Shown in pieces: positions 730 to 30,601 of a stretch of DNA of 35,265 nucleotides (position 1 is the first letter of the stretch; each line of letters opens with the position of its first letter). This DNA is from a virus. Its lineage: Duplodnaviria > Heunggongvirae > Uroviricota > Caudoviricetes. The notes under the pieces were generated by a model, which did no database searches, was not told the origin of the DNA, and worked only from the letters and a program-made list of their open reading frames with translations. The translations under genes and the position numbers were made by a program. The DNA lies in IMG/VR virus record IMGVR_UViG_2579778866_000006, one strand, 5' to 3'.

Positions 730-990
730 TTAATTCTGAGATAAAGGCAAACTCATCTGATTGTTTCCCCTGTGTGAAGCTGGCAGATCATGCCACGGGA
801 TACCTTCTGAAGAGTGAACGCCGGAGGCGTGTTTTGATGTGAATTTATGGAAAGCTTCCAGTGTTGAGAAGCATACGCCGCATTCCAGGTTGTTACACTG
901 GTAATACTTTTGCCGCACGGTGTTTGAATCATTTTCCGGACGACTGGTGCGGATACGGGCAGATGCGCCACAAAGCGGACAACGGAACAT
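730..990 (-). CDS. ogr: Ogr/Delta-family zinc-finger late transcription activator
   Basis: N-terminus MFRCPLCG...YYQCNNLECGVCF matches the P2 Ogr pattern MFHCPLCQ...YHQCQNVNCSATF (C-X2-C ... C-X4-C); sits next to D as in P2. ORF is 86 aa against about 72 aa for P2 Ogr. Confidence 0.75.
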   Translation of the reverse strand: MFRCPLCGASARIRTSRPENDSNTVRQKYYQCNNLECGVCFSTLEAFHKFTSKHASGVHSSEGIPWHDLPASHRGNNQMSLPLSQN

Positions 991-1032: not shown

Positions 1033-2163
1033 TCACTCTGTTTCCGCTATCCATTCCGGGATTTTTGCCTCAAGCTCAAGCTGCGTGGTAAAGCCGCTGT
1101 TATCAATGGTGTGCTCGGCTTTCGCAATAATCCAGTCCTGATTATCAATCTCGCTTTTAAATCCTGTTACCGTGCCATGCATTTCGGGGTAGAGTTCTGC
1201 GCGTCCGCGTGCCAGTGTGATGGAGAATGATGCGGCTCCGCGTTGTAGTTGTTGCCACTTTGCCGCCGCTGCGCGTCTTGCTGCCTGCTCGTTCTGATAA
1301 GTCTTGCGTAACACAAACACATTGCCTTCCGCGCCTTCCATATAATCACCTTCACGGCTGCTGCTTTTCTCTTTTTTCGGTTTTGGCGGTTTGCGGCGTT
1401 TCACGCTGACTTTTTTCTTTTTCCCGTAATTAAGATCAAGCCAGTAAGCGCGTACCCCCGTATACGCCTCGCGGTCAGCAATGCGGAACTGATGGCGATC
1501 GCCGCTGCTGCGTGTGATGGCGAACGATGGCAACGGCTGGCCCTGTGCGTTCACGCCACCGCCGGGCATGATGAATAACAGATTACCGCTTTTTACCGTG
1601 GTGATTGCGCCCAGCATTTCCGCCATGCGCGTAAGGAAGGACATGTCGCTTTCTTCGGTCTGGTCGGCGTGGTCGATTTCAATATCCATCAGCATTTCGC
1701 TGATTTGCGGTTTCAGGCCGTATCGGTGAGCAATTGCAGACACCACGCGTTCAACGGTCACATCATGCCAGGATACTTCGCGCTTGACGTTAAATTCATC
1801 CCGAAAATCTGCGCTTCTGGCTGAAATGGTCAGTCTGTCGGGCGGTCCTTCATGAGCAATTTCATCAACAATGTAAGTGCCTTTTTCTGTCAGCGGTTCT
1901 CCTTTCCAGCCAATGAGAACCGTCAGGCGCGCGCCCCGTGGCGGTAGCTGCAACTGACCATCCGCATCATCCAGCGTGATGGTGAGCTGGTCCGCTTCAA
2001 ATCCCCGGTTGTCGGTCAGTGACAGGCTCATCAGGCGCTCTGCCACGCCGGACAGCGTTTCCCCCTCCGCGAGAATATCAAAATCCGGCATTTTCACGGG
2101 GTCTGTGCCCTGACTGAGCAATTGCATGGTGGTGTCGGTCATCTTTCCCTCCCTGTGCAGCAT
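1033..2163 (-). CDS. D: Tail protein D (phage late control gene D family)
   Basis: 376-aa ORF with gpD-family motifs (LSLTDNRGFEADQLTITLDDADGQL, SARSADFR, SWHDVTVE, SDMSFLTRMAEMLGAITTVK). Confidence 0.9.
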   Translation of the reverse strand: MLHREGKMTDTTMQLLSQGTDPVKMPDFDILAEGETLSGVAERLMSLSLTDNRGFEADQLTITLDDADGQLQLPPRGARLTVLIGWKGEPLTEKGTYIVDEIAHEGPPDRLTISARSADFRDEFNVKREVSWHDVTVERVVSAIAHRYGLKPQISEMLMDIEIDHADQTEESDMSFLTRMAEMLGAITTVKSGNLLFIMPGGGVNAQGQPLPSFAITRSSGDRHQFRIADREAYTGVRAYWLDLNYGKKKKVSVKRRKPPKPKKEKSSSREGDYMEGAEGNVFVLRKTYQNEQAARRAAAAKWQQLQRGAASFSITLARGRAELYPEMHGTVTGFKSEIDNQDWIIAKAEHTIDNSGFTTQLELEAKIPEWIAETE

Positions 2164-2298: not shown

Positions 2299-3483
2299 AT
2301 GAGTGAAACTCGTTTTCATGGTGCCCGTGTTACGGAAAGTACCGACCTGGTAACAGCGATTAATGATGTTGATTCCAGTGTTATCGGTATCGTGGCAACG
2401 GCGGATGATGCGGATGCGGAGCTGTTCCCGCTGAACAAGCCCACACTGCTGACCCGCGTCAATGACGTGCTGGGAAAATGCGGAACAACGGGGACGCTTT
2501 ATCGTGCGCTTAAGGCCATCGCAGACCAGGTGAGCACAAAGGTGATCGTCGTTCGCGTGGCTGAACACAAAGAAGAAGACGGAAAAACGCAGGATCAACT
2601 GGTTATCGGTGGTTCTGAATCTGACGGCAGCTATACGGGGATGTATGCGCTGCTTGTTGCAGAGCAGGATGAAAGCATCGGATACCGTCCGCGTATTCTG
2701 GCCGCGCCGGAGCTGGACACGGAGGCGGTAACAAAATCCCTGTGCGTGATTGCGGGTAAACTGCGCGCGTTTGTGTATGCCTCATGTCACGGCTGTAACA
2801 CGATGGCTGAGGCGATTACCTACCGCCAGAAATTCAACGAACGTGAGGTGATGCTCTTATGGCCGGACTTCATCGCCTACAACCCGAAAAGTGGCAAAAA
2901 CGAAACGTTCCCCGCGCCTGCCTATGCGTGCGGCCTTCGTGCGTACATTGACCATGAGCAGGGCTGGCACAAATCGCTGTCCAACGTTCCGGTTAAAAAT
3001 GTGCTGGGGATGTCCAGGCATGTGTTCTGGTCGTTGCAGGCCGAAGACAGTGATGCCAACAGCCTCAACAACAAAGAAATCACGACCATTATTCGTCGCA
3101 ACGGGTTCCGTTTCTGGGGCAACCGCACCCCGGAAACGAACGCCTACATCTTTGAGGTGTATACCCGAACCGCACAGGTGCTGGCTGATTCAATTGCGGA
3201 AGCGCAGTTTGAAACCATCGACAGTCCACTGACGCCTGCGAACGTGAAAGATGTTATCAGTGCCATCAGGGCAAAACTGGATTCACTGGTTACTGCCGGG
3301 AAACTGATTGGGGCGTCGTGCTGGTATGACGTGGTGGATAACGGCACCACGAATTTACGTCAGGGGCGCGTGCGTATTCGCTACAAATATACGCCTGTTC
3401 CCCCGCTGGAAGACATGGAGCTTTACCAGTCGTTTACTGATGAATTCTTTGGTCCCGCATTTGCGGTGCTGGGAGGTGCCTGA
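2299..3483 (+). CDS. FI: Contractile tail sheath protein FI
   Basis: 394 aa; conserved blocks shared with P2 FI (ADDADAELFPLNKP, RAFVYASCHGCNTMAEAITYRQKF, WPDFIAYN, EQGWHKSLSNV, RRNGFRFWGNRT, YTPVPPLE). Confidence 0.95.
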   Translation: MSETRFHGARVTESTDLVTAINDVDSSVIGIVATADDADAELFPLNKPTLLTRVNDVLGKCGTTGTLYRALKAIADQVSTKVIVVRVAEHKEEDGKTQDQLVIGGSESDGSYTGMYALLVAEQDESIGYRPRILAAPELDTEAVTKSLCVIAGKLRAFVYASCHGCNTMAEAITYRQKFNEREVMLLWPDFIAYNPKSGKNETFPAPAYACGLRAYIDHEQGWHKSLSNVPVKNVLGMSRHVFWSLQAEDSDANSLNNKEITTIIRRNGFRFWGNRTPETNAYIFEVYTRTAQVLADSIAEAQFETIDSPLTPANVKDVISAIRAKLDSLVTAGKLIGASCWYDVVDNGTTNLRQGRVRIRYKYTPVPPLEDMELYQSFTDEFFGPAFAVLGGA

Positions 3484-3995
3484 TGGCTGTACCAAAACAT
3501 CTTCGCTTTTTTACGCTGTTTGTGGATGGTGAAAACGAAGTGGGTAAGGTGACGTCTGTCACTCTACCTAAGCTGACGCGCAAAACCGACAGCTACCGGG
3601 GTGGTGGCATGATGGGTGCGGTAAGTATTGATCTCGGTCTGGACGACTCCGCGCTTGATGCGAGCTTTGTCATGGGGGGCGCAGTTCGTGAGCTGTTCCT
3701 TAAGTATGGCGGCACGATTGACGGCACGCTGCTGCGTTTTGCGGGTGAATACTACACCGATGCAGAAAGCGACCTGTATGAAGTCGAAATGCGCGGACGT
3801 GTGACGGAAATTGATATGGGGGAAGCCAAACAGGGCGAAGCCACATCACACACTTACGCCATTAAAAACACCTACTACAAGCTGAGTGTTAACGATCGCC
3901 CGTTGTGGGAGATTGACCTGCTGAACTTCATTTACCGGAAGGACGGCAAGGACATTGTGCCCGATCGCATCCGTTCCGCGCTCGGGCTTGGCTGA
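3483..3995 (+). CDS. FII: Tail tube protein FII
   Basis: 170 aa; P2 FII-like (SVTLPKLTRKTDSYRGGGM, LGLDD); start overlaps the FI stop. Confidence 0.9.
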   Translation: MAVPKHLRFFTLFVDGENEVGKVTSVTLPKLTRKTDSYRGGGMMGAVSIDLGLDDSALDASFVMGGAVRELFLKYGGTIDGTLLRFAGEYYTDAESDLYEVEMRGRVTEIDMGEAKQGEATSHTYAIKNTYYKLSVNDRPLWEIDLLNFIYRKDGKDIVPDRIRSALGLG

Positions 3996-4049
3996 TAAGT
4001 AATATGCAGGCGGCGCAGTGCGTCGCCTCTGACTGAAAGGAGTTTCCTG

Positions 4050-4415
4050 ATGAAAGAGACGAAAAACATCGATACCGAAAACACGGTAGTTACTGACACT
4101 GTGAAAGAAACCAGTGAGCGTGGCGTAAAACTTACCCAACCAATTGAGCGAGGCGGCGAAAAAATCACGTATGTGGAGATCACCGGGGCTATTGAGCAGG
4201 CTGGATCTCTGCGAGATTTGTCGCTGTCTGATGTGCTGAATCTGAAAGCGGAATCCATGTTTACGCTGCTGTCACGCGTGACATCACCGCGACTGGATGA
4301 AGTGACGATCAAAAAAATGGCATCCCGTGACTTTATTCAGTTATGTGTGGTTGCCGTAAATTTTTTGAGCGGTGCGGACTCTGGCGGGAAGAACGAACAG
4401 GCGACGGAAGCCTGA
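4050..4415 (+). CDS. E: Tail assembly chaperone E (zero-frame product)
   Basis: Small ORF between tube and tape-measure genes, as in P2; contains the slippery heptamer near its 3' end. Confidence 0.8.
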   Translation: MKETKNIDTENTVVTDTVKETSERGVKLTQPIERGGEKITYVEITGAIEQAGSLRDLSLSDVLNLKAESMFTLLSRVTSPRLDEVTIKKMASRDFIQLCVVAVNFLSGADSGGKNEQATEA

Positions 4416-4579
4416 TCACGGTTGTGTGCTTTGAGCACATAGAAGACTTTGTGGCGGATATTGCCGCCATTTTTAACTGGTCGCCCGCCGAAATCTTCAT
4501 GATGACGCCCGGCGAAGTGGTTAGCTGGCGTGAGCGGGCGGCACTTCGCAGCGGGAATGCAGACAATGAAGACTCTTGA
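4050..4579 (+). CDS. E: Tail assembly chaperone E+E' produced by programmed -1 frameshift at T TTT TTG (about 4361-4367)
   Basis: Slippery TTTTTTG inside E; the -1 frame stays open (FFERCGLWREERTG...SWRERAALRSGNADNEDS) to 4579 and overlaps the tape-measure start, the conserved P2 E/E' arrangement. Confidence 0.75.
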
Positions 4580-7373
4580 TATCCGGGTCGCTTTCAGCGC
4601 CGTTGACAGGCTGACCCGGCCTGCCGAAAACGCCCGCCGCCTGATGGGGCAGTTTGGTGACTCCATCCAGCGAACGCAGGGGGCGATCAAAAATCTCGAG
4701 CGTCAGGCGCGATCATTTGAGCGCGCCCGCGACGCTGTCAGTAAAGCGGATGCGGGTATCGTGAAAGCACGACGCCAGCTTAACGCCCTTAATCAGTTAC
4801 AACGCACGGGTACAGTGCTCAGCGAAAAACAACAAAAGCTGATGCAGCAGTTAAGCACCCGGCTTGAACGCCTGAATGAATCGCGCACACGGGAAATTCA
4901 GAAAATGCGGGAGCTTGGCGGAGAGCTGAAACGCCACGGCATTTCCCTGACAGGCAGCGATAACACCATCCAGCAGGCCATCAGACGCACCGAACAGTAC
5001 AACAACCAGCTTGAACGCGAACGGCAGGCGCTTGCGCGTGTAACGCGGGCGCGTGAGCGGTATTCGCGCGCGCAGGAAACAGCGGGAAAACTGAAAACAG
5101 GTGGTGCGCTGGCAATTGGTGCGGCAGCGGCTGGCGGCTATGCTGCCGGACGTTTTTTGCAGCCCGCGATCGGGTTCGGGAAAGAGATGTCCCGCGTTCA
5201 GGCACTGACGCGAATCGACCAGAACAGCCCGCAGTTTAAGGCGCTGCGTGAGCAGGCGTTAAAACTTGGCTCTGAAACACAGTTTACTGCGAGTGATGCC
5301 GCCAGTGGGCAGAGCTTTCTGGCAATGGCTGGTTTTACTCCGCAGGCCATTCAGGCCGCATTGCCCGGTGTTCTTAATATGGCGCTGGCAGGTGGCGTCG
5401 AACTCGGCGAGACGGCTGATATAGGCTCCAATATCCTCACACAGTTCAACCTGACAGCCGATCAAATGGACCGGGTTGGCGATACGCTGACAGCGGCATT
5501 CACCCGGACCAATACTGATTTACGCGCGCTGGGCGAAACCATGAAGTATACCGGTCCGGTTGCCGCAAAACTTGGTATCAGTCTTGAAGAAGCGGCAGCC
5601 ATGGCCGGGATGCTTGCCAATAATGGTCTTCGCGGAAGCGATGCTGGTACGGCCATGCGCGCAAGTCTGTCCCGCCTTGCATCACCGCCAAAAGCTGCGG
5701 CTGATGCGCTGAAAGAGCTGGGAGTGTCAGTTGCTGACGCCAGAGGCAAAATGCGCCCGATGGAGGATGTGCTGGTTGATCTCTATAAGGCGACACAAAA
5801 ATACGGACAGGTGGACCAGGTTTCCTTCTTCAAGGACATCGCCGGAGAAGAGGCGTTCGTTGGTTTGCAGACGCTTGTTGCGGCGGCCGGTTCAGGAGAG
5901 CTGCAAAAACTGACCAGAGAATTGCAGGAGGCAAGGGGAGAGGCCGATCGCGTCGCAAAAGTAATGGCCGATAATCTTGATGGGGACCTGAAAAATCTCG
6001 ACAGCGCATGGGAAGGTCTTCGTATTCGCATCAGTGATCTGGTTGACGGTCCGCTGCGTTCTGTCACGCAGTGGCTCACGCGGGTGCTTGAAAAAATCAC
6101 CTCGCTGGCGCAGGCCCATCCGGTGCTGACGCGCCAGCTACTGATAGCAGGCGGTGCGTTGCTGGCAATGACTGCAACGATTGGCTCGTTGTCGCTGGTT
6201 ATTGGGGTGCTTTACGGGAAGCTGGCCACGCTGCGTCTTGGTTTTGACATTCTTACCCGGTCAATGAATGTCGTCAGGGTGTTGCCTGCGCTGTGGGGAA
6301 TGGTGACGGGTTCCGTTTCTTTACTGGGAGGCGCTATCGGGGCGCTGTTCAGTCCGGTTGGTCTTATCGTGGCTGCGCTTGCCGGAGCTGCCGTTCTTAT
6401 CTGGAAATACTGGGATCCCATCAGGGCATTTTTTGCCGGGGTGTTCAGCGGGATCATGGAAAGGCTGACCCCGTTGCGCGAAACCTTTGAACGGTTTGGT
6501 CCTGTTTTTGACGCAATCGGAAGCGGGATCAGCCAGGTGTTTAACTGGTTTAAATCGCTGCTGTCACCGATGGAGTCCAGCAAGGAAACGCTGGATAAAT
6601 GTACCAGTGCTGGCGAGATATTCGGTAACGTTCTTGGCGGTGCGTTACAGCTTGTTCTGACACCTGCCAAAATGCTACTGGATACGCTGGCGTGGATACT
6701 TGAAAAACTTGGCGTCCTTCCGGATGAAGCGGAAAGGGCGCGCAAGAAAATCGAAGACGCACAGCGTGCGGCCATTCTTCAGGACAAGGTTGCCTTGCTT
6801 CAGGGGGACCTTGCGAAAATCAATCCACCGAAGCCTGTGGAAAATGGCAATGGCACCGGAGGTGATAAACCCAAAGACAACAAACCGCTCACAGACAGCA
6901 ATACCGGGACGCTACGCAGACTCAGCAAAATTGCTGATAACACAGGTAAGCTGGTTGATGAGACGAAAAAACGCATTGGCCCCGGCGATATTGTCTTTAA
7001 GAACCTGCCCCGCGCACTTGCTGTTCGTGGGGAGTGGCAGGAGCGGAAGATTGCGCAGGTCAGTAAGCCTGCCCCCGCAATTAATATCACACCCGTAGTC
7101 CCGGCTCCGCTGCCTCCGGCGCTGGTCCCTGTTGTTGCGGCCAGCTCCCGCCCGGTGGCGGAGGCCATACGATCGCCAGTGGCATCAGTTCCTGCAGCTT
7201 CCCGTAATCGGGAGCCTGCTGTCTCCGGATTTGGCGGTGAAATTCATGTTCATCTGCATAACGTTGTTACGCAGAATCCCCGCGAACTGGCGAAACTGGT
7301 CGGTGAAATGGTCAGGGCAGAGATGGAACGGCGCGCCCGTGCCGGACGTGGCAGTTTTTACGATAAAGATTGA
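4530..7373 (+). CDS. T: Tail tape measure protein T
   Basis: 947-aa ORF with coiled-coil N-terminal region, Gly/Ala-rich hydrophobic central segments and a proline-rich C-terminal tract; positioned between E/E' and U. Confidence 0.9.
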   Translation: MSGRHFAAGMQTMKTLDIRVAFSAVDRLTRPAENARRLMGQFGDSIQRTQGAIKNLERQARSFERARDAVSKADAGIVKARRQLNALNQLQRTGTVLSEKQQKLMQQLSTRLERLNESRTREIQKMRELGGELKRHGISLTGSDNTIQQAIRRTEQYNNQLERERQALARVTRARERYSRAQETAGKLKTGGALAIGAAAAGGYAAGRFLQPAIGFGKEMSRVQALTRIDQNSPQFKALREQALKLGSETQFTASDAASGQSFLAMAGFTPQAIQAALPGVLNMALAGGVELGETADIGSNILTQFNLTADQMDRVGDTLTAAFTRTNTDLRALGETMKYTGPVAAKLGISLEEAAAMAGMLANNGLRGSDAGTAMRASLSRLASPPKAAADALKELGVSVADARGKMRPMEDVLVDLYKATQKYGQVDQVSFFKDIAGEEAFVGLQTLVAAAGSGELQKLTRELQEARGEADRVAKVMADNLDGDLKNLDSAWEGLRIRISDLVDGPLRSVTQWLTRVLEKITSLAQAHPVLTRQLLIAGGALLAMTATIGSLSLVIGVLYGKLATLRLGFDILTRSMNVVRVLPALWGMVTGSVSLLGGAIGALFSPVGLIVAALAGAAVLIWKYWDPIRAFFAGVFSGIMERLTPLRETFERFGPVFDAIGSGISQVFNWFKSLLSPMESSKETLDKCTSAGEIFGNVLGGALQLVLTPAKMLLDTLAWILEKLGVLPDEAERARKKIEDAQRAAILQDKVALLQGDLAKINPPKPVENGNGTGGDKPKDNKPLTDSNTGTLRRLSKIADNTGKLVDETKKRIGPGDIVFKNLPRALAVRGEWQERKIAQVSKPAPAINITPVVPAPLPPALVPVVAASSRPVAEAIRSPVASVPAASRNREPAVSGFGGEIHVHLHNVVTQNPRELAKLVGEMVRAEMERRARAGRGSFYDKD

Positions 7374-7379
7374 GGAGTC

Positions 7380-7874
7380 ATGGCCATGATGATGATCTAC
7401 GGCATGTTTGTTTTTGAGCTGCGCACATTGCCGCATCAGCAGTTACAGCAAAACAAAAGCTGGCGGCATGTGAAAAATGAACGCGTTAACCGCTCAGCAA
7501 GCTGGCAGTATATCGGTGCAGGTGATGATCGCATTGTGCTTTCTGGCGTGCTTTATCCTGAAATTACAGGTGGCGAAGTGTCGCTTTCGTTGCTGACCAC
7601 GCAGGCATATACAGGACGCCCCTGGCCTCTGATTGATGGTGTCGGGCAGATTTACGGCATGTATGTGCTGACTGAAACGAATACGACCCGTTCCGAGTTT
7701 GATCGCTACGGTAAGGCGAAAAAGATAGAATTTTCACTGACCCTTGAACGCTGTGATGAGGATTTGCGGGAGCGCCTGCAATCCTCATCGTTCAGCGATA
7801 TGCTGTCCGGCTTCAAAGATAAGGTGACATCATCTCTTAACAGCGCGGCCAGTTCAGTTAAAGGGCTGTTCTGA
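7380..7874 (+). CDS. U: Tail protein U
   Basis: 164 aa; similar to P2 gpU (MMM..GMFVF.L.T.P.Q.LQ....WRH, GDD.I.LSGVL.PE.TGG, YGMYV, KIEFSL.L.R.DE). Confidence 0.85.
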   Translation: MAMMMIYGMFVFELRTLPHQQLQQNKSWRHVKNERVNRSASWQYIGAGDDRIVLSGVLYPEITGGEVSLSLLTTQAYTGRPWPLIDGVGQIYGMYVLTETNTTRSEFDRYGKAKKIEFSLTLERCDEDLRERLQSSSFSDMLSGFKDKVTSSLNSAASSVKGLF

Positions 7875-7880
7875 TTTAAC

Positions 7881-7920
7881 ACAAAAACCGCTAATGGTCA
7901 GATTAGCGGTTATTTTGTTT
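7881..7920. terminator. Bidirectional intrinsic terminator between convergent U and invertase genes
   Basis: Perfect 10-bp stem aaccgctaat / attagcggtt with 6-nt loop, A-run on one side and T-run on the other. Confidence 0.7.
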
Positions 7921-8515
7921 CCTGACTCTTCTCTATTGTTCCGCTTGATTCTCCTGCGGGGTGGTAACGATAAATCGTCGATATACCAATGCCGTAAATT
8001 ATTGCCAGTTGTTTTCTGTCGTGCCCGTTTTTGATCAGCCTTGCTATTTGCTCATGCTGTTCTTTTGTCAGCTTCGGGCGACGTCCGCCTGTGCGCCCCC
8101 GTGCGCGCGCTGCCGCCAGTCCGGCCAGTGTACGTTCAACAATTAATTCACGTTCCATTTCAGCCAGGGCACCCATCACGTGGAAGAAAAAACGCCCCAT
8201 TGGAGAAGATGTATCTATGCTGTCGGTCAGACTGCGAAAATTAATCCCTCGCTCCCGTAGTTCCCCGACGAGAGAAATCAGATGTTTCATGCTTCGCCCG
8301 AGGCGATCCAGTTTCCAGACAACCAGCGTGTCACCTTTTTGAAGGCGCTTTAAAGCGCGTTTTAATCCCGGTCGGTCTGTCTTTGTCCCGCTTAATTTAT
8401 CTTCAAATATTTGTTCACATCCTGCACAAACAAGAGCGTTTCGTTGCAGGTCTGTATTCTGGTCATTTGTTGATACCCTTACATAGCCAATCAGCACGCT
8501 GAATCTCCCGTCCAA
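7910..8515 (-). CDS. Serine recombinase, DNA invertase of the Gin/Cin/Pin/Hin family
   Basis: 201 aa; N-terminal resolvase catalytic domain (GYVRVSTNDQ with the catalytic Ser, LVVWKLDRLGRS) and C-terminal HTH (GISTIYRY); adjacent to a gix-like crossover site. Confidence 0.95.
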   Translation of the reverse strand: MDGRFSVLIGYVRVSTNDQNTDLQRNALVCAGCEQIFEDKLSGTKTDRPGLKRALKRLQKGDTLVVWKLDRLGRSMKHLISLVGELRERGINFRSLTDSIDTSSPMGRFFFHVMGALAEMERELIVERTLAGLAAARARGRTGGRRPKLTKEQHEQIARLIKNGHDRKQLAIIYGIGISTIYRYHPAGESSGTIEKSQETK

Positions 8516-8551
8516 AAGCGTAAATCATGCCATGCAGGTCAGAAACGACCA

Positions 8552-8577
8552 TTATCTAAAACCTCGGTTTACGAGAA
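8552..8577. other. gix/hix-like 26-bp inversion crossover site (left end of invertible segment)
   Basis: TTATCTAAAACCTCGGTTTACGAGAA; its reverse complement TTCTCGTAAACCGAGGTTTTAGATAA closely matches Mu gix TTCCTGTAAACCGAGGTTTTGGATAA. Coordinates about +/-2 bp. Confidence 0.8.
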
Positions 8578-9273
8578 CTCGGCACAAGCGGGGAGAAAAT
8601 ACCGTTACTCAGTACAGCGAATACCTGGACTAATCGACAAACATTCAGCGGTGGCCTTTCTGGTGAACTATCCGGCAATGCTTCTACAGCTGCAAAATTA
8701 AAAACTGCCAGGAAAATAAGCAATGTGGCTTTTGATGGTTCCTCCGATATCACATTAAAAGCAAGTCATGTTGGTGCGTTTGCCTTAGGGAAAACAGGAA
8801 GCACCGTTGCGAATGATAAAGCAGTTGGATGGAACTGGAGTAGCGGAGCCTATAACGCAACTATTAGTGGTGCATCAACGTTAATTATTCATTTTTATAT
8901 GGGAGAAGGAAGTTGTCCTGCAGCTCAGTTTCGGATTAATTATAAAAATGGCGGTATTTTTTATCGTTCAGCCCGTGATGGTTATGGTTTTGAAGCCGAC
9001 TGGTCCGAATTTTACACCACCACCAGAAAACCTTCAGCAGGAGATGTTGGTGCATATACTAAAGCGGAATGTAATTCACGATTTATTACAGGTGTCCGTT
9101 TAGGAGGACTGTCATCTGTTCAAACATGGAATGGGCCTGGTTGGTCTGATAAGTCAGGTTATGTCGTTACAGGTTCAGTTAACGGAAACCGTGACGAATT
9201 AATTGATACAACTCAGGCAAGGCCAATTCAGTATTGCATTAATGGGACGTGGTATAACGCGGGGAGTATTTAA
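8566..9273 (+). CDS. Alternative tail-fibre C-terminal variable cassette (Sv'-like); no start of its own, expressed only after inversion
   Basis: Track ORF 8725..9273 starts at the first GTG of a frame that is open back to the crossover site at about 8566 and closed by TAA just upstream. C-terminal motif RPIQYCINGTWYNAGSI parallels RPIQKYINGTWYNVAQV of the H gene. Confidence 0.7.
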   Translation, partial: GLRELGTSGEKIPLLSTANTWTNRQTFSGGLSGELSGNASTAAKLKTARKISNVAFDGSSDITLKASHVGAFALGKTGSTVANDKAVGWNWSSGAYNATISGASTLIIHFYMGEGSCPAAQFRINYKNGGIFYRSARDGYGFEADWSEFYTTTRKPSAGDVGAYTKAECNSRFITGVRLGGLSSVQTWNGPGWSDKSGYVVTGSVNGNRDELIDTTQARPIQYCINGTWYNAGSI

Positions 9274-9275
9274 CG

Positions 9276-9809
9276 ATGATGCACTTAAAAAACATTACTG
9301 CTGGCAATCCTAAAACAAAAGAGCAATATCAGCTAACAAAGCAATTTAACATCAAATGGCTTTATACAGAGGATGGAAAAAACTGGTATGAGGAACAAAA
9401 GAATTTCCAGTCTGATACGTTGAAAATGGTCTATGACCATAACGGCGTTATTATTTGTATTGAAAAGGATGTTTCAGCAATTAATCCAGAAGGCGCAAGC
9501 GTCGTTGAATTACCTGATATTACAGCAAATCGCCGGGCTGATATTTCGGGTAAATGGATGTTCAAAGATGGCGTAGTGGTAAAGCGAACTTATACCGAGG
9601 AAGAGCAGAGGCAACAAGCGGAAAATGAAAAGCAAAGCTTGCTACAGCTCGTCAGGGATAAAACCCAGCTATGGGACTCACAGCTACGGCTGGGCATCAT
9701 TTCCGACGAGAATAAACAAAAATTAACAGAGTGGATGCTCTACGCGCAGAAAGTCGAATCCACAGACACCTCCAGCCTGCCAGTAACATTTCCCGAACAA
9801 CCTGAATGA
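9276..9809 (+). CDS. Tail fibre assembly protein, alternative copy (G'/U'-like)
   Basis: 177 aa; N-terminus [24 protein letters not shown] is nearly identical to the oppositely oriented 9838..10365 gene; C-terminus diverges. Confidence 0.85.
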   Translation: MMHLKNITAGNPKTKEQYQLTKQFNIKWLYTEDGKNWYEEQKNFQSDTLKMVYDHNGVIICIEKDVSAINPEGASVVELPDITANRRADISGKWMFKDGVVVKRTYTEEEQRQQAENEKQSLLQLVRDKTQLWDSQLRLGIISDENKQKLTEWMLYAQKVESTDTSSLPVTFPEQPE

Positions 9810-9810
9810 G

Positions 9811-9840
9811 ACAAGGCCCGCTATCGGGCCTTAATTTTTA
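9811..9840 (+). terminator. Terminator-like hairpin between the two convergent tail fibre assembly genes
   Basis: Stem aggccc / gggcct followed by taattttta. Confidence 0.45.
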
Positions 9841-10365
9841 TTCAGGCTTTTGTGGCCATTCGGGATTTGCTGTATCCACACGGCTGACCAGAACGCTGTA
9901 GCGTTCCCATGACTCCAGTCGTGCGCGTTCCTCATCCGTCGCCATGTTCAGCCTGACAGCGCGTTCCAGTGGCTGGATAACTGATTCAGCTTCGGAAAGT
10001 AATGCGGCCTTTTGTGATTTGGCCTGTTGTTGCTGTTCGTCTGCCGTATAAATCCGCTTAACTACAGCCCCGTCCTTAAACATCCACTTACCTGAATCAT
10101 CGGCACGGCGATTAGCTGTAATATCAGGAACTTCAACGACGCTATAGCCTTCAGGGTTAAGCGTGGAGGCATCTTTGGTGATGGCGACAATAATATTATT
10201 CTCGTCATAAAGAATTTTTATTGTGTCTTCCTGAAAGTTCTTTAATTCCTCGTACCAGTTTTTCCCATCTTCTGACCACAACCAGATAACATCAAAATTC
10301 TTTGTTAGCTGATATTGCTCTTTTGTTTTAGGATTGCCAGCAGTAATGTTTTTTAAATGCTGCAT
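9838..10365 (-). CDS. G: Tail fibre assembly protein G, currently expressed copy
   Basis: 175 aa; immediately downstream of H on the same strand; N-terminus [24 protein letters not shown]. Confidence 0.85.
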
Positions 10366-10368
10366 GAT

Positions 10369-12387
10369 TTATACCTGTGCAACGTTATACCATGTGCCAT
10401 TGATGTATTTTTGTATTGGTCTGAACACAGCCGGATCATCGCCATCAACTTCGCCGACAATGCCAAGCCCCGTAATTGCATGGCCTGATTTTTCATACAT
10501 CACGCCTTTTTGCATAGTTTGAACAACACGCGTGCCAAGTCTGACATCTCTCACATAGCGTGAATCAAAATTCCCCCAGTTGCTGGGTTGTATCTGACCG
10601 TTTACAGCAAATATCACCGAGTTATCTGTATTTCGCTGACTATAGAAATGCCAGCCTGAATCATCACCAAGCTCTGCAACAGTTGGTCTTGATGAAGTGC
10701 CCCATAAATTAAACCCTACGTTCTTCGTGGAGTTGTTGGAGCTGGATAGCGTGAATTTTTTACCATCCCCAGCCTGAATATTTTTAAAAGCAATAGCCAC
10801 TCCATTCTGAAAGCGGAATACACGCTGACTATTAGCATAAACATCAAGAATACCGTCTCCATTCTGTTTAAATCCGGTATCATTATCACCAAGAGCAATA
10901 GAGCTACCACCTAACGCATTCGTCGTACCAACTCCAAGGCTGCCATTAATGACGGCATTAACAAGAATATTTAGTGCATCCCATTTCAGCGTCATCAGGT
11001 CTTTTGTTGTGGTGCTTTGTTTGCTTCTCCATTTGAAATATTCATTGCCGTTGTCACCTGTCTCAAACCACATGTATGAATCAGTGTCACCATCGGCATC
11101 ATTTTTAAATCCAATCTTCGCCCAGTCAGTATTTCGAATCCAGGCAAGGATTGAGTCATTTTCAAAAGTAAGCCCACCGGACAAAGTATCGCCATTTTTT
11201 TGCACGGCGTTACCAGCCCTGTTTACCGTTTCCTGTAAACCGAGGTATTCGATAACGGCAGCAACGGTCGATTTCGCAAGAATATCCCGCCCGACTTTTG
11301 TCAGGGTTGCCAGGCTGGCGACATCATTCCCCGTAAAATACGGAAACTTGTCTGCCGCAGTAGCAAGCCCGGCCAGCGCCGTCAGGGTGGCATCTTTCGG
11401 TTGCTTACCCGCAAGCGCGTTAGTCATGGTGGTCGCAAAATTCGGGTCGTTTCCCAGCGCCGCCGCTAACTCGTTCAGTGTATTCAGTGCGTCAGGTGAC
11501 GAATCTACAAGGGCGGCAATCGCAGCCATAACGAAAGCCGTGCTTGCTATTTGGGTATTATTCGTTCCCTGTCGCGCAGTTGGCGTTGTTGGCGTTCCGG
11601 TCAGCGCAGGACTGTTTAAGGGCGCTTTCTTGTTCGTTTCATCCATTACCGCCTTAACCGCTTTCGATGTCGCGGCCAGTGTTTCAGACGTGCTGTTGGT
11701 GGCACTACTGAGCTGGACTATCCCTTTTTGTGCCGTCGTGGCGTCCTGAGCGGTATATTTTGCGTTAGCCAGGTCATACGCGGCCTTAACCGCTTTCGGC
11801 GTTGCAGCCAGCGTTTCAGAATCGCTGTTAGTGGCGCTACTGAGTTGAACAAAGCCTTTTGCGGTCAGCGAGGCGTCCGGGTGACGTCGTGACTGTTCAT
11901 GCTCTTTCAGTTTGTCATCCACGTAATCCACTGTGGCCATCACCATGGTGTTATCCACGGTAAGCGCCACGGTGGCAGTGCTGGATACGGTCAGAATGGT
12001 GCGAAATGTTTGTGCACGCCCGGACCCTTCGGCAACGGCTGGCTTGTAACTTTCGGCAGTATTGCCCACCGCGATTAAATCGCCGTGCTCATCAAATACA
12101 CCAATTTCCCGGATCCAGAATCCGCCCGTTTCAGGAGGAATAACCAGCTCCGCAATAATGCGGTTCTGATGTGTTGCGTCCAGGATGACGCGATTAACAG
12201 TGTGTCGCCACACCTCATGCACCAGACGGGTCTGCTTACTGTCTGGTGTGGGCAATGTACCGCCACCATCGCCCACGGCCATATGAGTCAGGCGGACAGG
12301 CTTACCATCTGGCGCGGCTGCCTGCGCTAATTTTTTGGTACCAGTATCAGTGATAATGGTTTTAAATTTTCGTGTTGTGGTACTCAT
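10369..12387 (-). CDS. H: Tail fibre protein H (constant N-terminal part plus currently joined variable C-terminal cassette)
   Basis: 672 aa; internal tandem Ala/Thr/Ser-rich repeats (GFVQLSSATNSDSETLAATPKAVKAAYD, duplicated); gix-like site lies in-frame at codons about 379-386 (IEYLGLQE). Confidence 0.9.
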   Translation of the reverse strand: MSTTTRKFKTIITDTGTKKLAQAAAPDGKPVRLTHMAVGDGGGTLPTPDSKQTRLVHEVWRHTVNRVILDATHQNRIIAELVIPPETGGFWIREIGVFDEHGDLIAVGNTAESYKPAVAEGSGRAQTFRTILTVSSTATVALTVDNTMVMATVDYVDDKLKEHEQSRRHPDASLTAKGFVQLSSATNSDSETLAATPKAVKAAYDLANAKYTAQDATTAQKGIVQLSSATNSTSETLAATSKAVKAVMDETNKKAPLNSPALTGTPTTPTARQGTNNTQIASTAFVMAAIAALVDSSPDALNTLNELAAALGNDPNFATTMTNALAGKQPKDATLTALAGLATAADKFPYFTGNDVASLATLTKVGRDILAKSTVAAVIEYLGLQETVNRAGNAVQKNGDTLSGGLTFENDSILAWIRNTDWAKIGFKNDADGDTDSYMWFETGDNGNEYFKWRSKQSTTTKDLMTLKWDALNILVNAVINGSLGVGTTNALGGSSIALGDNDTGFKQNGDGILDVYANSQRVFRFQNGVAIAFKNIQAGDGKKFTLSSSNNSTKNVGFNLWGTSSRPTVAELGDDSGWHFYSQRNTDNSVIFAVNGQIQPSNWGNFDSRYVRDVRLGTRVVQTMQKGVMYEKSGHAITGLGIVGEVDGDDPAVFRPIQKYINGTWYNVAQV
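11230..11255. other. gix-like 26-bp inversion crossover site inside H (right end of invertible segment)
   Basis: TTCCTGTAAACCGAGGTATTCGATAA on the plus strand, inverted relative to the site at about 8552-8577; 22 of 26 positions match Mu gix. Confidence 0.8.
11638..11856 (-). repeat. Tandem in-frame duplication (two units of about 44 codons) within tail fibre gene H
   Basis: Protein repeats GFVQLSSATNSDSETLAATPKAVKAAYD and GIVQLSSATNSTSETLAATSKAVKAVMD; the DNA units are visibly similar. Confidence 0.6.
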
Positions 12388-12389
12388 GC

Positions 12390-12953
12390 TTAATCGTCCG
12401 GATAAATGGTAATGACTTCACCGTCGTAAGTTGCTGCCGCTGCGAAAATATCTCCCGGGATCTCCTGAATGATATTCAGCCCTGTCATGTGGCGGCTGAC
12501 CGGGCGGGCATCAGCAATCAACCGCTCCATTTCCAGATACATTTCCTCCGTCACGCCACTGTCCAGCGTGCCGACTTCAACGGTAAATGTTCCCGGTTCT
12601 CCGCCGAACTCCCACCACTCAGACACGCGAATGAGGTATCCCAGCGGCTCAATGGCCCGGCGCAGTGCGCTGATGGTCCCTTTGTGTCGGTGTATCAGCC
12701 ATGCATCACGAATCACCTGTCGCTTTGTCTCTTCCGGCCAGTTGCGATCCCAGCGGTCAACGGAAAACGCCCAGGCGAGATAAGGCAGCAGATGCACCGG
12801 GCAGGTATCCGGCAACCACAGCGTGTTGAGGTCTACCGGAATGTCTGTAATGCGCGTTCCGACAGCTTCGGCACAACGCATGAAATTGCTGGCTGATGGC
12901 GGTAACAGTGAATTACTCATTACGCCCACCTTCGCTGATGGTGAATGACTCAC
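12390..12953 (-). CDS. I: Baseplate assembly protein I
   Basis: 187-aa ORF between J and H as in P2; the true start is probably an internal Met, since the track ORF overlaps J. Confidence 0.75.
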   Translation of the reverse strand: MSHSPSAKVGVMSNSLLPPSASNFMRCAEAVGTRITDIPVDLNTLWLPDTCPVHLLPYLAWAFSVDRWDRNWPEETKRQVIRDAWLIHRHKGTISALRRAIEPLGYLIRVSEWWEFGGEPGTFTVEVGTLDSGVTEEMYLEMERLIADARPVSRHMTGLNIIQEIPGDIFAAAATYDGEVITIYPDD

Positions 12954-13809
12954 AGCGCGCCGCCTGTATGTCGCTGATGGCCATATTTTGTGTGGGTTCG
13001 ATTATCTCCACGCGTTGCACACCGTGCACATGCAGTGCGGCAGCAATGGCGGACAACGCCACGTCCTGACCGATAAGCCCCTGCTCAGACAGCCACTTCC
13101 TGAACGACGATTCCGCCGCGGCCAGAATAGGTTCGGATTCCGGGCCGGGGTAAAAGTACAGTTTTGCATTCAGCCGCCATGTCACGATTCTGGCACTCTG
13201 TACGGTCAGGCGGTCGGCCACCGGGCGGGTATCCTCTGCATTCAGAACGGCGCGAACGGTATTAAGCAACGCCTCCGTTGCTGTGCCGTCGCCCTCAGTG
13301 GACAGGATGGAAACCGTCACATTTGCCGGAGACGGACTGATAGCCCGCGCATCACGCACCAGACCGCTGGCGCTGCGGGCAAAATACTCGTATGCACCTG
13401 ACGGGCCAGCAACACTCAGGCCGTCGTACGCCCGTTGCGCCCGCAGTCTCAGCGAGGTGTCGCTTTCCATCACCGCGTCGGTGGTATCCGTTGCCGGAGT
13501 GATGGTCAGGCGCTTTGTGTTCATATTGCCCGCGAGGTTGTCCAGGTCTGTCCCGGCGCTGTGGCTTAACATGCAGGCGCGTGCACCCTCATTGACCCGC
13601 TGGCGTAACAGCATTTCACGAAACGCTGTTGTCTGGGCGATAACGTTCAGAGGTTCCGATTCCAGCTCCAGCGCGGCGGAGACGGCTTCACGCTGTTCGG
13701 CGGGATAAGCCGCAATCATCATGGCCTTTGTGTCAGCCAGAATTGCCTCAAAGTCAGGCTCCGCGATGATGGCGGGGTCCGGTAACTGTGAAAGGTCAAC
13801 GGCGGGCAT
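12913..13809 (-). CDS. J: Baseplate assembly protein J
   Basis: 298 aa; position and size match P2 J (W-J-I-H order). Confidence 0.8.
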   Translation of the reverse strand: MPAVDLSQLPDPAIIAEPDFEAILADTKAMMIAAYPAEQREAVSAALELESEPLNVIAQTTAFREMLLRQRVNEGARACMLSHSAGTDLDNLAGNMNTKRLTITPATDTTDAVMESDTSLRLRAQRAYDGLSVAGPSGAYEYFARSASGLVRDARAISPSPANVTVSILSTEGDGTATEALLNTVRAVLNAEDTRPVADRLTVQSARIVTWRLNAKLYFYPGPESEPILAAAESSFRKWLSEQGLIGQDVALSAIAAALHVHGVQRVEIIEPTQNMAISDIQAARCESFTISEGGRNE

Positions 13810-25399: not shown

Positions 25400-25711
25400 T
25401 TATTCGGGAAATAACGCCCGGATATTTCCGGCCATCTGACTGGTTATCTGTGCGGTTGATACTGGCTGTGACGCGGGGCATTCTGTCCTGGTTTGTGTCA
25501 CTGATAACGCCTCATCGTCAGCCCATGCAGCCAGTCGGTAAGCCTCTGCCGGATTCATTTTCAGAAGTGCCAGCCCGGCCAGAAAAGCCACGCGTTGGCC
25601 GCTTTTGCGGGCTTCTGGTGTAAGGCTGTCCAGCCAGGCGCATGCTTCGCTTTCGTTCTTGACGGCCGCAGGCTTCAGATAGAAACTTATCCGTCTGGTT
25701 GGTGTCGTCAT
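25400..25711 (-). CDS. ParR-like small protein downstream of parM (putative centromere-binding adaptor)
   Basis: ATG (MTTPTRR) lies 4 nt after the parM stop, with AGGAG overlapping that stop; about 103 aa. Assignment rests on position and size only. Confidence 0.45.
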   Translation of the reverse strand: MTTPTRRISFYLKPAAVKNESEACAWLDSLTPEARKSGQRVAFLAGLALLKMNPAEAYRLAAWADDEALSVTQTRTECPASQPVSTAQITSQMAGNIRALFPE

Positions 25712-25715
25712 TGGT

Positions 25716-26675
25716 TTACTCCTTGTCCATTGCGTACAGCCCATTAACCAGAGCAAACTGTGGCACCCCGTCCGCGATGAAAGTCGCATTAACTCCGCAG
25801 GCTTCGCGGATAGCGGGTGCCACAATCTCCGTCCCGCCACCGACAACCATCACCCGCCCGTAACCCGAAAAACCCGCCAGCGCGCGGATCACGCGTTGTT
25901 TCAGTGTTTCTTCCTTTTCACGAATAACCGCCATCAGGCTGGCGTAATGCGCGTCATTGTGGATGTGCTGGCGCAGCCAGGCTTCATCATGGCGATGTTC
26001 GATAATGGTATTGGCGATGTGGTGACTGGTGCGCATACCGTTAGTGGCCATCACCGACAGTACGGCATCGGCCATCAGAGAAACGCCTACGTGTGGATCG
26101 CAAAACACCTGGCTGATACCTGCCAGTTGCCCCTGAACCTTTGCCACATCCAGCGTGGTTCCGCCCAAATCCACAATCAGCAGGGATTCAAACGGACTCA
26201 TGTCAGCCAGTGCTTTAAAGCCAGCCGGAATAGATTCAGGCATAACCCGCACGTTACGGATAGTGAATGCCTCGCCGTTCTGGTACTCCACCGGGCGCAT
26301 AACGTTCGCTTTTTTGCGGTTGATGTTGGCCATGTCCGGCTGTGCGTTTGTGTCGAAATACTCGCTCAGTGGCAGGGTGACAACCACATCCACCTCCTGT
26401 GGCGTGATGCCTGATTTGACCAGCGCATGATGAATGGCAATGACATTCACATCGCTGTACTGGTATTGCGTGTCGGTCGTCTGGACAAAGCGATCGCTGA
26501 CCGGATCAAAACCATAGCGCACGCCATCAAGCATGTAGTTCGCGGGCTGCGTGCCACCGAACGGCGCAGACCATTCCGACTTGAAGCTGTTCGGGCTGAT
26601 GGCGTTGCGGCGTTCGCCGTTCTCAGTCCATGCCAGCTTGATGTTGGTGGAGCCGTCGTCGATACAAATTTTCAT
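25716..26675 (-). CDS. parM: ParM/StbA-family actin-like ATPase (plasmid segregation protein homologue)
   Basis: 319 aa; strong resemblance along the whole length to plasmid R1 ParM (IDDGSTNIKL, SPNSFK, QYSDVNV.A.HHAL, ANF/ANV, VMPESIPAG, LLI.DLGGTTLD, FSGY..VMV.GGG, LVNG.Y). Confidence 0.85.
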   Translation of the reverse strand: MKICIDDGSTNIKLAWTENGERRNAISPNSFKSEWSAPFGGTQPANYMLDGVRYGFDPVSDRFVQTTDTQYQYSDVNVIAIHHALVKSGITPQEVDVVVTLPLSEYFDTNAQPDMANINRKKANVMRPVEYQNGEAFTIRNVRVMPESIPAGFKALADMSPFESLLIVDLGGTTLDVAKVQGQLAGISQVFCDPHVGVSLMADAVLSVMATNGMRTSHHIANTIIEHRHDEAWLRQHIHNDAHYASLMAVIREKEETLKQRVIRALAGFSGYGRVMVVGGGTEIVAPAIREACGVNATFIADGVPQFALVNGLYAMDKE

Positions 26676-29592: not shown

Positions 29593-29978
29593 GGCTGGTA
29601 TCCCGTCACGCGCTGCCACTCCTGCGAGAAGATGGCGGAAAGGCGGTCAAATTCAGCGGTGTATTCACTCAGCGAGGCACACCCGCCAGCAGTGCGATGC
29701 GCCAGTATTGCCGCAAATACGGAGGCCGGGGAGTCGTAATACGCCAGTAGTGATTCGCCGTGTGGTGTCAGGCAGTGCAACGCCAGCCCGTGTGGTGTGA
29801 AGTCCACGCGGTAGCAGTCGTCTACTGTGAAATAAAGGGTGTCTGCATTCTCCGGTTTTGTGGTGCGTGCTCTGTTGTCACGACCACGGATGTAGAGATC
29901 AAATAATCCCTGAAGAACGGGAGCCAGACGGGTGTCCTGTGTGCGCACCCATCTTGTGAAGTCATGAGCGTCAATCAT
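29589..29978 (-). CDS. Hypothetical early protein (129 aa)
   Basis: ORF translationally coupled to A (ATGA overlap). Confidence 0.6.
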   Translation of the reverse strand: MIDAHDFTRWVRTQDTRLAPVLQGLFDLYIRGRDNRARTTKPENADTLYFTVDDCYRVDFTPHGLALHCLTPHGESLLAYYDSPASVFAAILAHRTAGGCASLSEYTAEFDRLSAIFSQEWQRVTGYQP

Positions 29979-30050
29979 GCTGCAATTCTCTTTACTACAG
30001 ATGTGCGAAGGCCTCCCGCCGCAAGGTGCAGGAAAGGCCCGGAACAGGAA

Positions 30051-30281
30051 TTAATGGAGTTTGTTTTGCTGCTGGAAGAGCTGCTGAAGCTCGCGCAGAT
30101 CATCCGCCAGATAGCTGAAAACAGCGGATGAGTAGAGGTTTGAAAGTTCGCAGCTACGCTCATGCAGCATATTGATGTGCATGATTTTAGCGACGCGGAA
30201 TGCGCGGGAAAGTCTGCGGTTGATTTCAGTCTGGATGTGACGACGCTCCGCGATAGCGCGGTGCTGTTTGCGGTCTGCCAT
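30051..30281 (-). CDS. Hypothetical early protein (76 aa)
   Basis: ATG preceded by AAAGAGG; basic helical protein. Confidence 0.55.
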   Translation of the reverse strand: MADRKQHRAIAERRHIQTEINRRLSRAFRVAKIMHINMLHERSCELSNLYSSAVFSYLADDLRELQQLFQQQNKLH

Positions 30282-30458
30282 GGTGTGGCCTCTTTGGTTG
30301 TAAGTTTTGAAAACTCACCATCCAGAGCTGCGAAACAGTGGGTGGCGAGACGTACGAGGTTCGCAGTACCGGCAACCAAAGAACCCGGCCCGACCGAAGT
30401 CGGCCCCGTACGCCCCGCCATAATTCGTGTGCGAAAAAGACGTGGCAATACAGTACGC

Positions 30459-30483
30459 ACAAAAAAACCGCTGGCGCGGTTGT
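30459..30483 (-). terminator. Intrinsic terminator-like hairpin inside the early operon
   Basis: On the minus strand: stem aaccgc / gcggtt (loop gcca) followed by TTTTTTT. Confidence 0.5.
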
Positions 30484-30601
30484 GCGCTTTGGTTGTCAGC
30501 AGGCTGCGAAACCCGGCACCCGTTTTATGAGGTGCAGCGGAAATGTAACCTGACTGATTGCGGCATGGCAAGCGGTTTTTTTGTGTGTACATGATGCTCA
30601 T

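Follow-up and report, generated by a model that had tools for sequence, protein, structure and literature searches.

The window analysed here, a 35,265 nt stretch of viral DNA (IMG/VR record IMGVR_UViG_2579778866_000006), is a P2-like prophage of the genus Xuanwuvirus, resembling phage P88 and Citrobacter phage Shae_phiSM (PhiSM). It very probably carries a functional Gin/Din-family inversion switch for tail-fibre specificity, essentially the G-segment module of phage Mu set into a P2-like prophage. The device itself is ordinary and well understood, and leaves our understanding of the mechanism unchanged.

The switch is bounded by two 26-bp crossover sites of the gix type, recovered where the initial annotation had put two such inverted sequences. 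Site 1, proximal to the invertase gene, lies at 8552-8577 and reads TTATCTAAAACC-TC-GGTTTACGAGAA on the plus strand, with the central TC at 8564-8565. Site 2, within the tail-fibre gene H, lies at 11230-11255 and reads TTATCGAATACC-TC-GGTTTACAGGAA on the minus strand; its central dinucleotide (GA on the plus strand) is at 11242-11243. The two are inverted with respect to each other, agree at 22 of 26 positions and share the central TC. Against the Mu gix sequence, TTATCCAAAACCTCGGTTTACAGGAA, which is present twice in the Mu record NC_000929, site 1 is identical at 23/26 positions and site 2 at 24/26. A degenerate 26-nt pattern allowing up to three mismatches found these two sites alone in the 35-kb window, and nothing in 100 dinucleotide-preserving shuffles of it; across the same 35 kb there were no extra crossover sites of the kind that would make up a shufflon of several cassettes, such as those of p15B and of one E2348/69 prophage. 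Both sites encode Leu-Gly-Leu (CTC GGT TTA) in the fibre frame, and site 2 is read in frame within H (…E Y L G L Q E…). The segment between them measures 2,678 bp (approximately 2.68 kb) and has the contents ascribed to it earlier: the 3′ part of H with an assembly gene in one direction, and a start-less cassette with a second assembly gene in the other.

Gene H is listed as a 672-aa ORF on the minus strand (10369-12387). Its constant N-terminal part (11244-12387, minus strand; Pfam Phage_tail_fib, 1e-53, with Phage_fiber_2 repeats) lies outside the segment and is collinear with all relatives compared. The variable C-terminal part (10369-11243, minus strand), which belongs to the same ORF and is currently expressed, lies within the segment and is 47% identical to Mu Sv, the first ~100 aa being nearly identical. 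It is followed by the currently expressed assembly gene (9838-10365, minus strand; 175 aa; Pfam Caudo_TAP, 4e-36), which is of the P2 G/Mu U type; its product is 93.7% identical to Mu U, and the gene shares 86% nucleotide identity with P2 H-G. Facing these genes is a silent, start-less alternative C-terminal cassette resembling Mu S′v (8560-9273, plus strand; Pfam gp37_C), open for 237 codons from inside site 1, where a TAA at 8557-8559 just precedes the open frame. Over its last 165 aa, identity is 90% to Mu S′ and 88-92% to the counterparts in P1, P7 and D108. The product of the alternative assembly gene behind the cassette (9276-9809, plus strand; 177 aa; Caudo_TAP, 7e-37) is 97.7% identical to Mu U′. 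In the gap where the two assembly genes converge, a consensus scan picked out a terminator-like hairpin (9813-9832, plus strand), with a T-run on the plus strand only. NCBIfam held no specific model for the invertase, fibres or chaperones, every match being below the cut-off.

When the segment was inverted in silico at the central dinucleotide of the sites, the constant part of H joined the silent cassette in frame, as had been predicted. The flipped product is 617 aa long, against 672 aa at present; the first 384 residues are common to both and the sequences then diverge. The frame across 8566-8725, which the initial annotation had marked for rechecking, proved sound: the plus-strand frame is open throughout 8560-9273, with no stop between the crossover point and 8725. 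The fusion is thus in frame in both orientations, and each 3′ cassette has its own assembly gene after it.

The DNA invertase, a Gin-type serine recombinase of 195 aa, is encoded just outside the segment (7910-8497, minus strand; Pfam Resolvase, 1.5e-50, and HTH_7, 1.8e-13), in line with the earlier placement. The mechanically called ORF runs from 7910 to a TTG at 8515; the start codon is probably the GTG at 8497, and site and start codon lie 54 nt apart, as in Mu. Residues 1-120 are identical to Mu Gin at 118 of 120 positions and the whole protein at 157 of 195, the best matches among solved structures also being to Gin (4M6F and 3UJ3, E ~1e-101). The enzyme keeps the wild-type Ser9 and Met114; in Gin, S9 is catalytic and M114V confers Fis independence (PMC3575834). 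With its catalytic domain so closely matched and Ser9 in place, there is no sign of a dead invertase. By comparison, the DNA-binding domain (residues ~130-195) is only ~50% identical to that of Gin.

The start of the invertase gene may contain a recombinational enhancer. Its 5′ 200 nt (8298-8497) match the corresponding part of Mu gin at 197 of 200 positions, and the Fis-dependent enhancer of Mu reportedly lies within the 5′ part of gin. Because of this identity the Mu enhancer sequence should be kept here; inversion may depend on Fis and the enhancer. In a simple scan, two degenerate Fis consensus patterns matched the region, but without the expected spacing.

Inversion at exactly these sites occurs naturally in sister prophages. 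A prophage of Escherichia coli FDAARGOS_1252 follows the window collinearly as far as 8572, has 8549-11259 in inverted orientation and resumes the window's order from 11235. Its sites, TTATCTAAAACCTCGGTTTACAGGAA and TTATCGAATACCTCGGTTTACGAGAA, are exact reciprocal hybrids of those in the window, which confines the crossover to the interval between positions 9 and 22 of the sites. Its H gene is annotated by RefSeq as the fused form, 92% identical to our in-silico product. Among complete E. coli genomes, 226 contain the recombinant H-cassette junction made in silico as one contiguous stretch (at least 80% of 600 nt), and 356 contain the present junction. The prophage in the window presumably inverts in the same way.

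It could be argued that the layout is inherited and that the segment no longer inverts here at a meaningful rate, owing to a mismatch between the helix-turn-helix domain and the half-sites, changes in the enhancer or a lack of invertase expression in the lysogen. The divergence of the C-terminal DNA-binding domain from Gin, the differences between the sites at 4 of 26 positions and the failure of a consensus scan to detect a sigma-70-like promoter upstream of the invertase gene would all fit such a frozen state. We nevertheless consider it improbable: invertases and sites of the same types are found in prophages of both orientations with clean reciprocal exchange of half-sites, the sites in EC31 are identical to those of the window, and both the catalytic domain and the enhancer region are virtually those of Mu.

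Less likely still is that the segment inverts but yields a non-functional fibre, the silent cassette being a decaying remnant. The first 72 residues of the cassette are indeed unrelated to Mu S′, and it is ~90 residues shorter than its Mu counterpart; the PhiSM record leaves it without annotation, and RefSeq pipelines call it a pseudogene or partial gene, in EC31 'incomplete, missing N-terminus'. That label counts neither way, since any start-less cassette would be so called. Against decay, the chance of 237 codons without a stop would be about (61/64)^237, or ~1e-5, the receptor-binding 165 aa keep both their likeness to Mu S′ and an intact gp37_C match, and the cognate chaperone is likewise intact. 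Other Xuanwuvirus and P2-like phages have full-length versions of the cassette at 85% identity, and in hundreds of genomes this cassette is the expressed one. Finally, the segment contains longer inverted homologies (the assembly genes share a 357-nt repeat at 73%, and the fibre 3′ ends one of 40 nt), but an incidental inverted repeat, with orientation differences arising from RecA-dependent recombination of homologous fibre sequences or from independent acquisition, is very hard to reconcile with FDAARGOS_1252 breakpoints inside the 26-bp sites rather than the longer repeats, reciprocally swapped half-sites, the close match of both sites to Mu gix and an intact Gin homologue next door.

Our data are therefore best read as a working fibre switch, for which we propose the following model. 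Dimers of the invertase would bind the two inverted sites and, with host Fis on the enhancer in the 5′ end of the enzyme's own gene, cut both at the central TC/GA dinucleotide; rotation and religation of the ends would then flip the 2,678-bp segment. The late operon V-W-J-I-H would run into the segment from 12387 downwards. In the present orientation it would yield the 672-aa H with a tip of the P2-H/Mu-S type, together with the G/U-type assembly chaperone; in the flipped orientation, the 384-residue N-terminal part would be joined in frame to a 233-residue tip of the Mu-S′ type (617 aa), followed by the U′-type chaperone. With two fibre forms set by orientation, a lysogen population would therefore release particles of two receptor specificities. 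By homology of the silent tip to Mu S′ and of the active fibre to PhiSM H, each orientation may have a host range of its own. PhiSM, whose H is 95.4% identical to that of the window and in the same orientation, offers a lead: its receptor is the Glc-III (WaaR-dependent) residue of the E. coli K-12 lipopolysaccharide core (PMC9659904).

The initial annotation also held that the module occupies the position of Z/fun in P2, which is right on one side only. G is indeed immediately upstream of the module, but on the far side stands gpU instead of FI, since phages of this genus have the FI-U operon (2299-7874 here, plus strand) converging on the H-G operon (minus strand), as in PhiSM. The module thus does not sit at the G-FI boundary of a collinear V-W-J-I-H-G-FI-FII-E-T-U-D order, the position that defines Z/fun and in which an invertase is seen in a P2-like remnant of E2348/69. 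That the FI-U orientation stems from a further, larger inversion catalysed by the window's invertase was considered and rejected, since PhiSM and other Xuanwuvirus records share this gene order; a pattern scan of the 35 kb gave no gix-like site near 2200 or 7880.

The findings bear on how such prophages are annotated. In hundreds of E. coli genomes, the 'partial' or pseudogene fibre fragment beside the recombinase is best regarded as a live alternative cassette, and the orientation of the segment decides which H protein is annotated. P88-type phages are in use as chassis for host-range engineering and would be expected to show a bimodal host range. The module also makes a clean example of an apparent exchange between Mu-like and P2-like phages. 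A tentative extension, which we put forward as possible but somewhat doubtful, is that the Mu G module as a whole, made up of the first two-thirds of gin (enhancer included), the two gix sites, the chaperone pair and the S′ tip, moved between a Mu-like transposable phage and the Xuanwuvirus lineage, with a breakpoint at about codon 125-130 that produced a natural chimeric invertase, and that the flipped form confers a cross-genus host range like that of Mu G(-), on Citrobacter, Shigella sonnei or Enterobacter-type lipopolysaccharide cores. If true, module transfer and cross-genus range could help to explain the near-identical phages in E. coli and Citrobacter rodentium.

Switching of fibre tips by Din-family invertases is familiar from other phages and particles with P2-type tails, including Salmonella Fels-2 (Fin) and SopE-phi and carotovoricin Er. 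Like the e14 Pin segment, the P2-like prophages of enteropathogenic E. coli E2348/69 swap the fibre C-terminus by means of an invertase, and both orientations coexist in clonal cultures by sequencing and PCR (Goldberg et al. 2014, PMC4272514, whose references include Kutsukake 2006 and Nguyen 2001). Those prophages carry pix-type repeats (AAACCTTGGTTTGGGAGAA) and segments of ~1.9 kb and keep the P2 genes in classical order, their invertase lying between the assembly gene and FI, whereas the window has gix-type sites and gpU as neighbour; on the grounds of sites and gene order we rejected them as the same lineage. The C segments of P1, P7 and D6 share the Din-family mechanism and an S′v-type tip at 88-90% aa identity, D6 having the full-length cassette at ~80%, and in P1, P7 and D108 the same tip is annotated within the invertible segment. 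P1, P7 and D6 are, however, plasmid prophages with another invertase (Cin) and cix sites; the comparison covered their tips.

The Xuanwuvirus phages P88, P884B11 and PhiSM resemble the window at genus level across the genome and at 91-93% nucleotide identity in the module. In GenBank their annotation includes a DNA invertase and two genes each for fibre and fibre assembly. Across 6500-13500, PhiSM and the window are collinear and in the same orientation; in the PhiSM record the silent cassette is left unannotated. The PhiSM paper merely lists 'a predicted DNA invertase', published host-range work on P88 makes no mention of the invertase and takes no account of inversion, and we found no analysis of inversion in any of the three phages in the searchable literature. 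Beyond the genus, the G segment and Gin of Mu (also of D108) provide the parallel. The window is P2-like rather than transposable, its constant fibre part is that of P2 H and not Mu S, the middle of its active cassette (10404-10942) resembles P2 H, and its segment is 2,678 bp as against ~3,058 bp in Mu; to these differences are added the diverged helix-turn-helix domain of the invertase and the unrelated start of the silent cassette. Nucleotide identity to Mu is nonetheless ~90% at 8109-8572, 8775-10404 and 10942-11255, and the two share the same order throughout: constant fibre part, gix, Sv-U, U′-S′v, gix and invertase.

The inverted gix-like site pair described in the initial annotation was borne out. 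A repeat search of the window returned an inverted pair at 8549-8577 and 11230-11258 (29 nt, 83% complementary), within which lie two 26-mer crossover sites, TTATCTAAAACC-TC-GGTTTACGAGAA at 8552-8577 (+ strand) and TTATCGAATACC-TC-GGTTTACAGGAA at 11230-11255 (- strand). The two core 26-mers are identical at 22 of 26 positions and have the central TC in common. They were the only matches in the 35-kb window to a degenerate 26-nt site pattern with up to three mismatches, and the same pattern gave no match in 100 dinucleotide-preserving shuffles of the window. The crossover site of phage Mu, TTATCCAAAACCTCGGTTTACAGGAA, is present twice in NC_000929 and agrees with the window sites at 23/26 and 24/26 positions. 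Between the centres of its two sites, the invertible segment spans 2,678 bp, compared with about 3,058 bp in Mu.

Just outside the segment lies an invertase ORF (7910-8515, - strand) with Resolvase and HTH_7 domains. Alignment with the Mu invertase gene, gin, places the start at GTG 8497, giving a protein of 195 aa and a site-to-start-codon spacing of 54 nt, the same as in Mu. Residues 1-120 are identical to Mu Gin at 118 positions (157/195 over the whole protein), and the best solved-structure matches are to Gin (4M6F and 3UJ3, E about 1e-101). Both the catalytic nucleophile Ser9 and Met114 are wild type; the M114V substitution frees Gin from Fis dependence (PMC3575834). At the nucleotide level, 197/200 positions match gin in the first 200 nt of the gene and 363/390 in the first 390 nt; beyond that point the figure drops to 89/192, and Mu homology stops abruptly at 8109, at about codon 130. 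This puts the end of the Mu-like block within the invertase gene, at about the point where the catalytic domain gives way to the HTH domain, and marks the predicted enzyme as a natural chimera in which a Gin catalytic domain is joined to a different HTH domain. The Fis-dependent enhancer of Mu reportedly sits in the 5′ part of gin, and the 5′ identity suggests that a Mu-type enhancer is kept in the window's invertase gene; a crude Fis-consensus scan of this 5′ region was uninformative. The gpU and invertase genes converge, with a bidirectional terminator-like hairpin (7878-7919; 10-bp stem, T-runs on both strands) in the gap that separates them.

The tail fibre gene H (10369-12387, - strand; 672 aa) encodes Pfam Phage_tail_fib, two Phage_fiber_2 repeats and Gp34_trimer, and is followed by the current assembly (chaperone) gene (9838-10365, - strand; 175 aa, Caudo_TAP). 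On the other strand, a silent cassette encoding a start-less alternative fibre C-terminus (open frame 8560-9273, + strand; gp37_C match) precedes an alternative assembly gene for a second Caudo_TAP protein (9276-9809, + strand; 177 aa). The stop before the cassette, TAA at 8557-8559, falls inside the crossover site. A recheck of the frame across 8566-8725, about which the initial annotation had expressed doubt, found no stops: the frame from 8560 (N L G L R E L G…) runs through 8725 and is open to 9273. Across its own site (11230-11255), H reads …I E Y L G L Q E T…. In-silico inversion of 8564-11243, translated from 12387, yielded a 617-aa protein that is identical to current H over 384 residues and continues as …EYLGL/RELGTSGEK… to …NGTWYNAGSI; the predicted fusion of H with the cassette is therefore complete and in frame.

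The constant part of H contains the Phage_fiber_2 repeats as a 132-nt tandem pair (77% identical; 11651-11746 and 11783-11878). The relatives EC31 and E. coli FDAARGOS_1252 have one further 132-nt copy (+44 aa), so the length of the fibre shaft changes with repeat copy number. A terminator-like hairpin with a T-run on the + strand only lies between the convergent assembly genes (9813-9832, +). It would end transcription past the chaperone in the flipped orientation only; with the segment as it now lies, late transcripts could continue toward the invertase gene.

Inversion has also occurred naturally in sister prophages. The sister prophage in FDAARGOS_1252, with flanks 97-99% identical to the window, is collinear with it to 8572, inverted over 8549-11259 and collinear anew from 11235. 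Its sites, TTATCTAAAACCTCGGTTTACAGGAA and TTATCGAATACCTCGGTTTACGAGAA, are exact reciprocal hybrids of the window half-sites, so the crossover must have taken place within the 12 bp that separate polymorphic positions 9 and 22, a stretch that includes the central dinucleotide. The RefSeq annotation gives the H of this sister prophage in fused form, with 661 aa and one extra 44-aa repeat, and this protein is 92% identical to the in-silico inverted product. Among complete E. coli genomes, the in-silico recombinant junction (600 nt) is contiguous in 226 (best match 99.8%) and the present junction in 356. Longer inverted homologies exist inside the segment, namely a 357-nt repeat (73%) between the chaperone genes and a 40-nt repeat at the fibre 3′ ends, and RecA-type recombination was considered as a cause of the flip; the breakpoints lie outside both internal repeats, which argues against it.

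A separate observation concerns E. coli O111:H21 15A (NZ_CP077477.1, 14000-44000), where the segment forms the centre of a mirror duplication, portal…I-H / tfa tfa / H-I…portal. The same protein accessions occur on both arms, and both junction types are found 2 kb apart. The probable cause is an artefact of assembling long reads from a mixed-orientation population, and such an artefact would be a hint of active flipping; alternatively, the inverted duplication could be real.

The window represents a nearly complete P2-like prophage belonging to the genus Xuanwuvirus (Peduoviridae). Phages P88, P884B11 and Citrobacter rodentium phage Shae_phiSM (PhiSM) are 91-93% identical to it over the switch region, and 564 complete E. 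coli genomes contain 80% or more of its first 25 kb. Its genes are arranged in the order ogr and D (-), FI-FII-E-T-U (+), invertase (-), segment, then H-I-J-W-V… (-), with an Ogr/Delta-type zinc-finger ORF at 730-990 (-) and gpD at 1033-2163 (-). Whereas P2 is collinear, FI-FII-E-T-U (2299-7874, +) converges here on the V-W-J-I-H-G operon; Shae_phiSM has the same converging order, so it is normal for the genus. The module had been assigned to the position of Z/fun in P2, and it does lie downstream of G, but its other neighbour is gpU.

Elsewhere, this integrase-bearing prophage carries a plasmid-type partition pair (25400-26675, -), consisting of a 319-aa ParM/StbA actin-like ATPase (StbA_N 1.8e-82, ParM C-terminal domain 5.6e-68) and a Plasmid_stab_B ORF. 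A C4 antisense RNA (30338-30425, -; 84.5 bits) and isrK (30461-30535, -; 65.9 bits), both above the Rfam gathering threshold, adjoin an Ash-family ORF (29975-30601); together they resemble a c4-type immunity/antirepressor module of the P1/P7 style, here carried by a P2-like phage.

In megablast and blastn searches, 8109-8572, 8775-10404 and 10942-11255 matched the Mu G region at about 90% nucleotide identity, and 9838-12159 matched P2 H-G at 86%. The current chaperone shares 93.7% protein identity with Mu U and the alternative chaperone 97.7% with Mu U′. The last 165 residues of the silent cassette are 90% identical to the alternative Mu tip, S′, and 88-92% to the D108, P7 and P1 counterparts. 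Its first 72 residues, in contrast, are unrelated to Mu S′ and are common to other Xuanwuvirus or P2-like phages and to phage D6.

The silent tip is thus of the Mu S′ / P1 Sv′ type. Mu particles bearing the S′ tip infect Citrobacter freundii, Shigella sonnei and Enterobacter cloacae rather than K-12. The active fibre shares 95.4% identity with its counterpart in PhiSM, whose segment lies in the same orientation, and PhiSM is reported to require Glc-III, a WaaR-dependent residue of the K-12 LPS core (PMC9659904). Two receptor specificities are a reasonable expectation for this prophage.

Overall, the observation made in the initial annotation is confirmed and its interpretation as a fibre switch is supported. 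In the literature on Xuanwuvirus phages that could be searched, the P88 host-range study nowhere mentions inversion and the PhiSM paper lists a predicted invertase, nothing more; GenBank records for the genus annotate the invertase and duplicate fibre and assembly genes. The module is widespread in E. coli, and its practical bearing is on annotation and host-range work on P88-type phages. Invertase-driven fibre switching has been shown by experiment in P2-like prophages of EPEC E2348/69 (PMC4272514). Those prophages have pix-type repeats and an invertase between the assembly gene and FI, and so their lineage differs from that of the window. Apart from the enhancer, whose retention is suggested by the gin identity, the sequence-level defining features of the Din family (Gin, Cin, Pin, Hin) were all found in the window, and its architecture and predicted mechanism are those of that family. 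The module amounts in practice to a Mu G segment carried on a P2-like chassis, a kind of system already very well known.
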